This document shows, one piece after another, positions 36,399-57,572 of a stretch of DNA of 64,000 bases. The stretch comes from Eledone cirrhosa. Its lineage: Eukaryota. Position numbers and translations under genes: made by a program. Under the pieces are notes generated by a model. That model did no database searches. It was not told the origin of the DNA and saw only the letters and a list, made by a program, of their open reading frames with translations. Each line of letters starts with the position of its first letter. Position 1 is the stretch's first letter. Location: the NCBI GenBank assembly GCA_964016885.1, contig OZ024741.1:270196001-270260000 (forward strand), in the 5' to 3' direction.

Positions 36399-36497
36399 AT
36401 AGGAGAAAGTATGACCCCGGGGGTCATACTTTCTCCTATTACTCACTCTACTACCCTAAGTATTGAGTACTCTGGTGCGTTATGGTCCATCGTTTTA
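36399..36497 (+). mobile_element. Minimal fold-back element (20-bp perfect hairpin plus conserved tail) in (TA)n
   Basis: ATAGGAGAAAGTATGACCCC-G-GGGGTCATACTTTCTCCTAT followed by ACTCACTCTACTACCCTAAGTATTGAGTACTCTGGTGCGTTATGGTCCATC. The tail is near-identical to 41328-41380. Confidence 0.85.
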
Positions 36498-36509
36498 TAT
36501 ATATATATT

Positions 36510-37030
36510 ATTTCAAAAACAACTCGGTCGAGAGCTTAATTCGTTTTGTGCTATTTTTGCAAATTTTTGCAATAACTACACATACTCAATTCATTGGCCA
36601 AAATAGGGGTTTTCTCCCCTTAGAACCTCACATGTGCTTTCATAACCTGTGAGATGCTGGCCCATGAAGAACAAAATGCCTGTTGAGAAAGCGATGCCTT
36701 GTTCGATCATTATACCAAAAGCTTATTTTTTATAAGCAGACAGTATTATTTATTTAGGTGTCGCAGAAACCCAAATTCGGAGTATTCCATCTTCCCCGAG
36801 GGTCCGGATGACTATTTCAATCATATCTTATTTTGTTTGACCCGTTTAACTTGTTCGCTTTTTTGGCTCTGGTGGTTAATGGCTTCTTAACCATCGTCTC
36901 AGTTTGTATGACCTTTTTAACTTATGTTTATAGCTCTGGTTTCTTCATATCCATTGAGCGCTTGTCTACACAATACGGAAGTTGCGTTTCGCTAATTTCT
37001 ACCCGCCGAAATGCGATTCTTGCTACATTT
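36510..37030 (+). repeat. Unclassified interspersed repeat, copy 1, bounded by (TA)n
   Basis: Colinear similarity to the reverse complement of 52640-53000, with shared blocks TGCCTTGTTC, GTCGCAGAAACC, GGGTCCGG, TGTTTGACCCG, TTAACCATC.TCTCAG, GAGCGCTTG and CGATTCT.GCTA. Confidence 0.65.
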
Positions 37031-37055
37031 ATATATATATATATATATATATATA

Positions 37056-37781
37056 TAGAAAAGAATGAAACGAAATTTCATTTCTCACTCTTAGTACAGC
37101 TGATACTTAAATGTCAGTATATATACGTACATACATATATGTATACAGACGTACAGTAGTATGTATATATATATACATACATGCACATATATATATATAT
37201 ATATATGTACGTATGGCTTTACTGAACATTTATTATAATCTTCGGGCTGTTTGTAAACAAACATCCCGAATTACGCCGTACAGTGTTCGGCAACCATCGT
37301 CGCCCTTTTGTTCAATACTGACACAGGAACGATATACTAGTTTCAAGCTTATTAGCTATCGTCAGCATCGTATACCTTCCTGTCAGATGATTGAATGTTT
37401 GAAAGTATATACTTTCCTTATGCATATTAACGGTTGAGCAGCCTAATTTGCATATCGAGTGAGTTAGTCGGCCGGGCGTACCGAAAACGATAAATGGAAA
37501 AGAATGAAACGAAATTTCATTTCTCACTCTTAGTACGGCTGATACTTAAAAGTGAGTATGTATACGTACATACATATATGTATACAGACGTACAGTAGTA
37601 TGTATATATATATATACATACACACATATATATATATATGTACGTATGGTTTTATCGAACATTATAATAAATGTTCGGTAAACCCATACGTACATATATA
37701 TGTGTGTGCATGTATGTATATATATACATACTACTGTACGTCTGTATACATATATGTATGTACGTATACATTCTTACATTT
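37056..37781 (-). mobile_element. Non-coding retrozyme-like / non-autonomous PLE: ~1.4 tandem units of a ~440-bp monomer plus terminal fold-back
   Basis: Direct repeat 37056-~37235 vs 37497-~37665. Hairpin 37548-37781 is centred on GAACATTATAATAAATGTTC. It carries an HHR at 37329-37371 and has (TA)n on both sides. Confidence 0.75.
37329..37371 (-). ncRNA. Minimal type I hammerhead ribozyme
   Basis: Minus strand ACGATG-CTGACGA-tAGCTaataAGCTt-GAA-ACTAGT-A^TATCGT. It has a 6-bp stem I, both core boxes, a 4-bp stem II, palindromic stem III ACUAGU and a GUA triplet. Confidence 0.85.
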
Positions 37782-37853
37782 ATATATATATATATAGTTC
37801 GGAATAACAGAAAACAAAAAACAGAGAGAAGCAGGAGTAAATGTAACAAACAT

Positions 37854-37890
37854 TATTAGTTTCACGCTTGGTGAGGGTAGGGCTCATCAG
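37854..37890 (-). ncRNA. Degenerate hammerhead motif
   Basis: Minus strand CTGATGA-gccctaccctcaccaagcgt-GAAACTAATA; stems pair poorly. Confidence 0.35.
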
Positions 37891-37959
37891 CGGGTTTCGC
37901 CTAATCAATAATCAATCGATTATTTTTATATTGATATATTGTGTGTAAATGTGAGAGTG

Positions 37960-54547: not shown

Positions 54548-54599
54548 AACAACAATAATAATAATAATAATAATAATAATAATAATAATAATTATAATA

Positions 54600-56037
54600 A
54601 TCAGTGATATATGTATACAGTTTGGTATTAGTAAGTGTGGAGTCATTGTGATGAGGAGGGGTAGGTTGAGCAGAAGTAACGGAATCCAGATACCAACAGG
54701 TGAGATGATAAAGGAAATTGACTCTGAGGAAGGATACAAGTATTTGGGCGTTCTGGAGGCTGATGGCATAAAGAACAAAAAAATGAAGGAATTGTTAAGA
54801 ACTGTATAAATTCGGAGAGTAAGGAGCGTATTGAAGTCACATCTGAACAGCAGAAATGCCATAAGCGCAGTAAATTCCCGAGCTGTGTCTATTATTAGGT
54901 ACAGTGTGGGAATTCTGAGATGGAATGTTGCTGAACAAAAAGAAATGGATAGGAAGACTAGGAAGCTATTGACTATCTACAACATGTTCCACAAGAGGAG
55001 TGATGTCGATAGACTCTACCTAAGGAGATCTGAGAGTGGAAGAGGTCTTATCAGCATAGAGGACTGTGTTCAGATGGAGAAAAACAACCTATACAAATAC
55101 GTGACTGATAGTAAGGAGCCAATGCTCAGAACTGTACTGAAGGAGGGGACAGTAGGCCAGGGGATGTCCAAGGAGGAAATAACATCAAGGAGAAAGAGCA
55201 GCCTTCAGGGAAAATCCCTTCATAGTACCTTCTTTGAGAAAACTGAATTTAGAGATCCACAGACATGGAACTGGTTGAGAAGAGAAGACCTCAAAAAGGC
55301 TACAGAAGGAATGTTAATGGCTGCGCAGGAGCAGGCCCTCAAAACGAAGTGGTTGAAACACCATATTTACAAGGAGGAGGCTAGCCCACTATGCAGGATC
55401 TGTGGAGAGAGAGAGGAGACTGTGGCTCACATTGTATCCGAGTGTAAACACCTAGCCCAGACCTACTATAAGGGCTGGAGACATGATGTGATGGGCAGGG
55501 TGATCCACTGGCACCTGTGCAAAGTAAACAATTTACCACATTCTGAGAAATGGTATGAGCATAGGCCAGAGGCGGTGATGGAGAACGATCAGGTGAAGGT
55601 GCTGTGGGATTTTAGGATACAGACGGACAAGAAACTGGAACACAATAGACCTGACCTGGTGGTTGTGGACAAAGAAAAAAGAGCGTGTCTGATTGTGGAT
55701 GTGGCCTGCCCATTCGACACGAGAGTGCAAGAGAAGGAGAGGGAGAAAATTAACCGATACCAAGACTTAAAGTGGGAGGTAAAAAGGATTTGGAACTGCC
55801 ATGAAGTCAAAGTGATCCCGATTGTCATAGGCGCACTGGGGACTATCTCCAAAAGTTTCCAGGGATGGTTAAAGAAAATCGGCCCCTTCACGCTTTTTGG
55901 AACGCTTCAAAAGGCATGCTTGCTGGGAACAGCAAGAACCCTCCGATACGTCTGAATATCTGAGGCTGCAGGTAGTGGCTTGATATTCATTCCAACGGAC
56001 TATCCAGTTAACCAACATCAATGACTGAGATTCAAGG
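54600..56037 (+). mobile_element. R4/Dong-clade non-LTR retrotransposon, 5'-truncated copy B (RT end, CCHC, RLE)
   Basis: FGISKC, YKYLGV, RLYL.R..GRGL, CRIC..EETVAHIVSEC, RHD and RPDLVV..IVDVACP..EKINRY (PD-D/ExK endonuclease). One internal stop at 54807; (TAA)n on both sides. Confidence 0.95.
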
Positions 56038-56110
56038 AATAATAATAATAATAATAATAATAATAATAATAATAATAATAATAATAATAATAATAATAAT
56101 AATAATAATA

Positions 56111-56638
56111 CTTGAAAAAGATCACATCTCAATCTTGTGGAACTTTAGCATCCAAACAGACCGAAAAATAGATGCAAATAGACCTGATATAATATTGAAG
56201 GACTTTAAAAAGAGGGTATGCCTGCTAATTGATATGTCCGTTCCAATAGACAAGAATGTATCTATAAAAACATTTGAAAAATTGAGCAAGTATAAGGACC
56301 TGGAGATAGAAATTGGAAAAATGTGGAAATTGAGAACTAAAACAATACCAGTGGTTGTACGCGCTCTAGGAATGATACCTAAGGGTCTAATGATTACTTA
56401 TCGCAAATCCCAGGAAACCCGCGTATAGGAGAAATACAAAAGATAGTACTAATGGGAACTGCCCATATACTAAGGAAGATTCTGTCAATATAAGTTCATC
56501 ACAAGTCTAAACACCTAAAGATGCATGTGTGAGTATGTATGTTCTTTTTTGAACATGGCGGACCTTGTTGTCTCTTGAGGTCACTGGTTGTGACTTGGTG
56601 ATAACTCGTATGAACATAAAGCAAGATAAATGCAGCTG
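56111..56638 (+). mobile_element. R4/Dong-clade element of a second family, 5'-truncated
   Basis: ILWNFSIQTDRKIDANRPDIILKD..LIDMSVP..EKLSKYKDL..GTAHILRK with a different 3' UTR; (TAA)n on both sides. Confidence 0.92.
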
Positions 56639-56675
56639 TAATAATAATAATAATAATAATAATAAAAATAATAAT

Positions 56676-57201
56676 ACCTGTGCAAAGTAAACAATCTACC
56701 ACATTCTGAGAAATGGTATGAGCATAGGCCAGAGGCGGTGATGGAGAACAGTCAGGTGAAGGTGCTGTGGGATTTTAGGATACAGACGGACAAAAAACTG
56801 GAACACAATAGACCTGACCTGGTGGTTGTGGACAAAGAAAAAAGATCGTGCCTGATTGTGGATGTGGCCTGCCCGTTCGACACGAGAGTGCAAGAGAAGG
56901 AGAGGGAGAAAATTAACCGATACCAGGACCTAAAGTGGGAGGTGAAAAGGATTTGGAACTGCCATGAAGTCAAAGTGATCCCGATTGTCATAGGCGCACT
57001 GGGGACTATCTCCAAAGGTTTCCAGGGATGGTTAAAGAAAATCGGCCCCTTCACGCTTTTTGGAACGCTTCAAAAGGCATGCTTGCTTGGAACGGCAAGA
57101 ACCCTCCGATACGTCCTGAATATCTGAGGCTGCAGGTAGTGGCTTGATATTCAATCCAACGGACTTTCCAGTTGACCAACATCAATGACTGAGATTCAAG
57201 G
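56676..57201 (+). mobile_element. R4/Dong-clade element, 5'-truncated copy D
   Basis: Near-identical to the 3' ~525 bp of copy B, with an intact RLE frame 56738-57127. Confidence 0.95.
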
Positions 57202-57270
57202 AATAACAATAACAATAATAATAATAATAATAATAATAATAATAATAATAATAATAATAATAATAATAAT

Positions 57271-57572
57271 AATAATGTCCGTTGCCCATAGGCAGATCTC
57301 ACATAATTCAGCCTCGACAGAAGAATATTGCTCGACTATGGTATACAATAGATATACCCAGCACACCATAGTGAAATACCAATATATTGAACATTACATT
57401 CATGTAACATTCTTTCTTTACTTTAATTTATATTCCTTTTGAAGTTCCGATGAGCTGCTCTAACTTTACCAAAGTTAATTATCTTCAACTGAACCAGATC
57501 AATAATGATCTATAATCATTTGATCCAGAAACATTATATGGAGTAGCGAAACAATTGTAAACGGACATTATT
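57271..57572 (+). mobile_element. PLE pLTR fragment with HHR (expanded stem II) and 13-bp inverted copy
   Basis: GTT-CCGATGA-GCTGCTC-[80 nt]-GAGTAGC-GAA-ACAATTGT-A^AAC (57444-57562). 57271-57283 is the reverse complement of 57560-57572. Confidence 0.65.

Follow-up and report, generated by a model that had tools for sequence, protein, structure and literature searches.

The stretch of DNA analysed here (the window) comprises 64,000 nucleotides (nt) of the Eledone cirrhosa genome (contig OZ024741.1 of assembly GCA_964016885.1, positions 270196001-270260000; the host is an animal with a 3.0 Gb genome in which (TA)n and (AAT)n are abundant). It contains two sites, at 36399 and 57271, that had been read from the sequence alone as inversions whose breakpoints coincide with the predicted cleavage site of a hammerhead ribozyme (HHR). 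Both are head-to-head insertions of Penelope-like elements (PLEs), the first belonging to family 1, which has a further copy at 41212, and the second to family 2. Junctions are numbered with the predicted HHR cut as reference, 0 being the first base 3' of it, and an arm is defined as starting at the furthest base that still matches a natural long copy. The parts of the three insertions are:

36400-36419, minus strand: family 1, the inverted arm of a very small hairpin inserted in (TA)n, with its end at the predicted cut (0 or -1); the class recurs genome-wide
36420-36491, plus strand: family 1 direct arm; begins with the base that immediately follows the predicted cut and carries a truncated tail; 97% to the natural long copy L362
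41212-41272, minus strand: family 1 inverted arm; its end, at -41, is the fixed 5' boundary of the family (from long-copy alignment and genome-wide arm starts)
41273-41406, plus strand: family 1 direct arm from -35, with the 3' half of the HHR (predicted cut 41307/41308) and the full tail, without the 5' core
57271-57283, minus strand: family 2 inverted arm of 10-13 nt, adjoining (AAT)n; its last 3 nt are common to the direct arm
57281-57572, plus strand: family 2 direct arm, with its start at -278, the boundary of this family (alignment to L172)
57444-57562, plus strand: minimal hammerhead motif of type I; the core is U4C, helix II is long and loop III palindromic; predicted cut 57559/57560
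57573-57752, no strand assigned: unrelated short repeat, a later insertion into the family 2 ATT tract (other copies are continuous here)
57753-58074, plus strand: family 2 continuation on the 3' side of the ATT tract; matches L172 at 88% over 330 nt

The inversions themselves are as reported: 36400-36418 is the reverse complement of 36420-36438, with a single G between them, and 57271-57283 is the reverse complement of 57560-57572. Their breakpoints are placed less sharply. At 36399 the direct arm does start at the first base after the cut, but the end of the inverted arm is ambiguous between 0 and -1, because G 36419 complements the base preceding the cut. The cut predicted from the 41212 element (41307/41308) is valid for longer members of family 1, but not for the 41212 copy itself, which is without the 5' core box and has a broken helix III pair; its own arms end upstream of the cut, by 41 nt in one (-41) and by 35 nt in the other (-35), which makes this copy a counter-example to the cut-site rule that had been left uncounted. 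At 57271 the end of the inverted arm can only be bounded, between 0 and +3, because the direct arm aligns to L172 from 57281, so that 57281-57283 fit both arms; 6 of the 13 bases of the inverted arm are ATT repeat, and 57281 is also the commonest 5' boundary of family 2.

Family 1 yields 8,691 anchor matches genome-wide (control 1), and family 2 about 2,300 arms (2,366 anchor matches, control 82). Long copies of the two families carry reverse transcriptase (RT) motifs followed by GIY-YIG motifs, which were identified in L445, L446, L172 and L567, and the two families are 45% identical over 130 amino acids; the best Atlas cluster for the long-copy protein combines RVT_1, HTH_animal and GIY-YIG (0.93). 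A Pfam search of the long-copy proteins returned GIY-YIG matches below cut-off (E 0.07 and 0.02) and no RT match, and a PDB search returned no match; because the Pfam support lies below cut-off, membership among the PLEs rests on the motifs, the Atlas cluster and the anatomy. This anatomy is that of endonuclease-bearing (EN+) PLEs, with an inverted 5' copy, two 3' ends and a tail on about half of the arms. Contigs from public sequencing runs (four runs from one study, possibly the assembly's own sample, in which RNA starts are not visible) have loose ends at both 3' ends, and the insertion targets are (TA)n or (AAT)n microsatellites. The long copies examined are all 5'-truncated and interrupted by stops or frameshifts; no search for a full-length copy was made. 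Two other identities were rejected: a miniature inverted-repeat transposable element, on account of the asymmetric ends, the copy-specific junctions and the long copies that run into an RT element, and a non-LTR retrozyme (LTR, long terminal repeat), for which the available part of bioRxiv 10.64898/2026.07.22.740005 gives tandem units, each with a full hammerhead, as the definition; the copies here are single arms or head-to-head pairs.

The long copies of family 1 hold a complete type I HHR, with core boxes, NUH site and three helices, and its cut falls where the sequence-only reading had put it. The core is the U3-A8 variant in 12 of 15 spanning copies and has C3 with A8 in the other 3, and the constrained fold (-28.4 kcal/mol) lies within 0.8 kcal/mol of the free fold (-29.2 kcal/mol). 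Because this core is a U3-A8 variant, the search for a canonical core upstream of family 1 arms found none among the matches listed (first 100). In the 41212 copy the 5' core is replaced by the inverted arm, leaving a single long hairpin (z -20.7) that lacks the 5' core of a hammerhead. The family 2 core is U4C in 85/97 copies and canonical in 5/97, and its helices I-III can pair. An Rfam scan of the window at E<=5 gave no hammerhead match. Two further families in the window served for comparison:

38976-39079, no strand assigned: family 3 hairpin, from a PLE family used for comparison, with arms that meet 29 nt below a TATA box
40949-41210 (ends approximate), no strand assigned: family 4 hairpin, likewise used for comparison; in other copies the arms converge near -115

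Family 3 has a canonical core, located inside its transcript, and family 4 has one in none of 18 copies; self-cleavage at the NUH site would be expected in families 1 and 2, and hardly in the main subfamily of family 4. A longer relative of family 3 at 34886-35002 keeps both the TATA box and the canonical hammerhead core, and L018, L027 and L054 represent at least three further families of hairpins, each arm of which contains the 3' half of a hammerhead.

When breakpoints are plotted against the NUH site, as the sequence-only reading had proposed, the main peaks lie away from the cut, at -41 in family 1 and, more broadly, near -278 in family 2. Family 1 was scored on 99 distinct arms among the matches listed (first 100 of 8,691) and family 2 on 95 distinct segments among the matches listed (first 100 of 2,366 anchor matches). 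The family 1 arms start beyond -50 in 13 cases, at -49 to -35 in 57, at -34 to -2 in 25 and at -1 to +1 in 4 (p 0.2 against the flanking rate), with 25 of the 99 at -41/-40; single-arm copies adjoining (TA)n have the same start point, and in the public-run contigs loose ends lie at -41 and 8 of the 9 strand switches listed at -42 to -38. Family 2 starts range from 0 to beyond -700; of 100 arms listed, 24 stop inside a 62-nt span, 19 of them at -281 to -270 and 5 exactly at -278 (the -278 boundary and the TA-flanked arms were counted by eye). In family 3, 13 of 25 arms start at -46 to -43, and in family 4, 12 of 30 at -119 to -109. Each of the four families thus has a fixed boundary of its own, away from the cut.

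These counts bear directly on the strong form of the earlier proposal, in which hammerhead cleavage sets PLE inversion breakpoints generally, through run-off and fold-back at the cut. The window cases at or near the cut speak for it, as do three near-perfect fold-back joins at the cut in family 2 (L224, L287 and L297); against it, only 4/99 family 1 arms and 1/95 family 2 segments are at the cut, with the main peaks elsewhere in all four families, and fold-back of one cDNA is incompatible with a tail that is present on one arm and absent from the other. The cut is not the general determinant of PLE inversions; as a general rule the strong form is already refuted by the arm-start counts in the four families, and we consider it extremely improbable. 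A fold-back at helix II was also dropped, since single-arm copies share an identical boundary.

The fixed boundary is likely the transcription start of the element. A perfect TATA box stands 29 nt upstream of the family 3 boundary, which is thus likely a transcription start; in family 1 a TATA-like box stands 31 nt upstream and the boundary is initiator-like. Compared with promoter consensus motifs, a TATA box about 30 nt above a pyrimidine-purine start is present in family 3, TATA-like in family 1, weak in family 2 and absent in family 4, which has CCAAT- and CRE (cAMP response element)-like motifs upstream. Directly upstream of the family 2 boundary, at -290 to -279 (upstream of the L172:3002-3062 region), lies what we take to be a YY1-like motif. 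Arms of one insertion have rare subfamily variants in common. In family 3, arms that begin at the second base of the boundary often have a T before it where long copies have A, as if the cDNA had gained an untemplated A. Alternatively, the boundary could mark a stop of the reverse transcriptase at an RNA structure or a bound protein instead of an RNA 5' end, as might be suspected from the small hairpin inside loop II in which the family 1 boundary lies, from the position of the family 3 boundary at the start of helix I and from the 13/99 family 1 arms that read past the boundary. However, the stronger helices II and III are passed by the enzyme, the place of the boundary relative to the ribozyme differs among the four families, and two of them have promoter-like spacing; we regard such a stop as unlikely. 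Promoters and start sites inside the pseudo-long terminal repeat (pLTR) are described for other PLEs in the available parts of PMC2377424, PMC8557442 and PMC3846280.

Beside this main boundary there is a small excess of arms that start exactly at the predicted cut. Scaled up, arms at 0 make up about 1.4-1.5% in families 1 and 2, which is 2-5 fold over neighbouring positions. Among the family 1 matches listed (first 100 of 529, of which 26 were dropped as intact or as internal deletions), 13/74 are at 0 over 20 positions (p 7e-5). The family 2 cut-site pattern gave 65 matches (control 4), of which 54 were kept once internal deletions and duplications were out, and a script put 16 of these at 0; with three of the 54 also dropped (one from another repeat family, one with a 1-nt deletion and one ambiguous), 13/51 are at 0 across 17 positions (p 6e-6). 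A second family 2 set, overlapping with the first, used an anchor with its start away from the cut (45 matches, control 0) and placed 7/39 at 0 over 21 positions (p 0.002); here the script had 6/39, and an arm scored +3 was re-read as 0 with a substitution. The peak is found at 0, whereas a stall at helix III would have put it at -1. The cut-site joins of families 1, 3 and 4 were counted by eye (a script check of the first 30 rows agreed for family 1). An early cut-site pattern was at chance (31 matches against 25 in the control) and another was mostly non-family; both were superseded by the filtered patterns.

The tiny hairpins of family 1 carry the same mark on both sides of the join. Those with a centre of up to 20 nt (36 matches at 35 loci, counted by eye, as were those with a centre of up to 30 nt) have both arms no more than 1 nt away from the cut in 12/35, where a uniform null gives 1.4, and exactly at the cut in 5/35, an extra A or T at the join being common; the 36399 element belongs to the class with both arms at the cut. 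When centres of up to 30 nt are admitted (46 family loci among the first 50 of 288 listed), joins at internal repeats or palindromes number about 24, against 5 with both arms at the cut. In a further alternative, arms arise by self-priming on an antisense template, the route put forward for rotifer PLEs in the part of PMC3846280 available, or hairpins spread whole and then lose their centres. Palindromic joins do occur, and the commonest short forms are centre deletions at internal palindromes and repeats; but junctions vary between copies, many single-arm copies start at the same boundary beside (TA)n, and both arms end at the same sense-strand point, so that we consider this origin distinctly unlikely. 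An inherited hairpin in family 1 was likewise rejected, as unselected copies show varied junctions; the apparent arm mismatch behind that reading arose because matches had been picked by query likeness.

The observations to be accommodated are two fixed 3' ends, with and without the tail, a sharp 5' boundary specific to each family, varied junctions with short inserted bases, and the small surplus of 5' ends at the predicted cut in two of the four families. We propose that the endonuclease would nick both strands of the microsatellite target, that each nick would prime reverse transcription of the sense RNA at one of two internal start sites flanking the tail, that both cDNAs would run off the template at the RNA 5' end, and that end joining would then fuse the two cDNAs head to head. 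The RNA 5' end would be the transcription start in most copies and the self-cleaved hammerhead end in about 1.5%. That paired cDNAs run to the RNA 5' end in this manner, mostly to the promoter start and in the small remainder to the self-cleaved end, appears reasonably probable. Fold-back of a single cDNA, one of the routes proposed in the sequence-only reading, is at odds with the tail, which is present on one arm and missing from the other. The family 1 boundary is located within loop II of the hammerhead. An RNA started there would be without the 5' core and therefore unable to cut itself; self-cleavage would be open to longer transcripts alone, whose short 3' product would yield tiny hairpins such as the one at 36399. 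In vitro, a lizard PLE was found to use two internal RT start sites flanking the tail and both target strands (PMC11167929, from the part available), and mostly uncut templates, as suggested here, would agree with that study.

Several observations weigh against this account. The RNA 5' ends assigned to the boundaries are those implied by genomic arm ends; an extra G derived from the cap is not clear (65 TA-flanked arms gave 7 G and 5 C, and another tally 11 G, 8 C, 17 T and 2 A, with no clear G excess), the boundaries of families 2 and 4 are without a clear TATA box, and the TATA-like box of family 1 doubles as a strand of helix II. As to the cut, the available text on the lizard PLE reports no reads beginning or ending there, and ribozyme mutants that inserted normally (PMC11167929). 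The pattern filters preferentially detect AT-rich flanks and are unequal in sensitivity between flank types, a bias of which the p-values take no account. Without the joins that could reflect microhomology the excess shrinks, to 6/67 in family 1 (p 0.12) and 8/46 in family 2 (p 0.005). Family 3 has no peak at 0 (5/60, p 0.28) despite its canonical core, with microhomology attractors at -2 and +2, and family 4 has no excess at 0 (3-4 of ~62).

Part of this evidence favours the alternative that the boundary is indeed the transcription start, but that microhomology and scoring have produced a spurious excess at the cut, through a G run in family 1 and an A run beside AT-rich flanks in family 2. 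Possible microhomology is present in 7/13 family 1 and about 5/13 family 2 joins at 0, such attractors dominate family 3, and it is the family with the best core that lacks the peak. On the other hand, the five family 1 hairpins with both arms exactly at 0 contain inserted bases but no microhomology, the CG at the cut, which is self-complementary and would be the expected attractor, is used in only 1-2/35, and the family 2 excess persists after microhomology cleaning. We thus judge the artefact to be rather unlikely, and a class of arms made from cleaved templates to be, on balance, probably real; the small excess at the cut likely records self-cleaved RNA. The earlier claim that the breakpoints are fossils of self-cleaved 5' ends accordingly does not hold as a rule; what is left of it is a minor class, about 1.5% of arms being at the cut, above the neighbouring positions. 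Whether PLE inverted junctions can be taken as a fossil map of template RNA 5' ends, with thousands of hairpins as run-off cDNA pairs that reach the promoter start, and tiny hairpins at the NUH site as traces of germ-line cutting by variant-core hammerheads and of retrotransposed cut product, we hold to be an even question.

The surroundings of the insertions are rich in repeats. Positions 1-34400, over half of the window, are a 47-bp tandem array of ~96% identity (726 overlapping 300-nt copies at 47-nt spacing), which dominated the output of the whole-window repeat finder. At 53780-57130 there are several tandem truncated non-LTR 3' ends with a restriction-like endonuclease motif, each terminating in (AAT)n, and the family 2 insertion is located in the last of these (AAT)n tracts. 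A short repeat, as at 57573-57752, has inserted repeatedly into the ATT tract just past the family 2 cut in unrelated copies (L033, L057 and L060). An RT-like open reading frame at 58800-60450 resembles the N-terminal part of another PLE, and long inverted repeats at 35088-36292 and 51595-52539, with arms of 395 and 332 nt, are possibly more head-to-head insertions.

The larger signal in these data is the likely promoter boundary, to which the cut-site headline is subordinate as a minor class. The numbers from this genome suggest that most templates are uncut and end at the likely promoter start, with about one arm in seventy at the cut, and exact positions can now be named for 5' mapping and cleavage assays. 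The abundant microRNA-like hairpins in microsatellites would be explained as by-products of PLE priming on both target strands. The structure resembles L1 twin priming, in which two target nicks prime two cDNAs that are joined as an inversion, the second primer annealing at a variable internal site; here, in contrast, both primers would use fixed 3' start sites, and the two cDNAs finish close to a common 5' point. In the open-access literature, supplements excluded, no paper was found in which the inversion junctions of PLEs are placed relative to the cut or the transcription start. The origin of the head-to-head 5' inversion and hammerhead cutting in vivo are stated as open questions in the available parts of PMC8557442, PMC3846280 and PMC11167929.

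Inverted pLTRs, tails, palindromic junctions and HHRs are already known for PLEs (PMC8557442 and PMC3846280, here and below as far as available). The EN+ PLEs described there are alike in combining RT with a C-terminal GIY-YIG domain, a hammerhead in the terminal repeat, an inverted 5' copy and a tail on one end, and further in their microsatellite targets, palindromic inverted junctions and TATA- or initiator-like pLTR motifs; they differ in that here thousands of copies consist of the short head-to-head pair alone, with arm ends converging on one point per family. The minimal type I hammerheads of PLEs (available part of PMC4209133) have the same U3-A8 core variant and palindromic loop III, as well as motif pairs on opposite strands 100-700 bp apart, whereas here the boundary of family 1 splits the ribozyme and family 2 has U4C in 85/97 copies. 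In the R2 element the cut of an HDV (hepatitis delta virus)-like ribozyme likewise marks genomic 5' junctions (available part of PMC3774820), but there it is the normal 5' end, while here it marks ~1.5% of arms. A case from Schistosoma with a twister ribozyme also came up among the literature search results (PMC8501958). Closest in mechanism to our proposal is Poseidon of Anolis carolinensis, which in vitro cuts and extends both target strands, has two internal RT starts and uses uncleaved RNA as its main template; the available text gives no sign of cleavage in its RNA-seq and does not address the 5' junction (PMC11167929), whereas here a minor genomic class starts at the cut.

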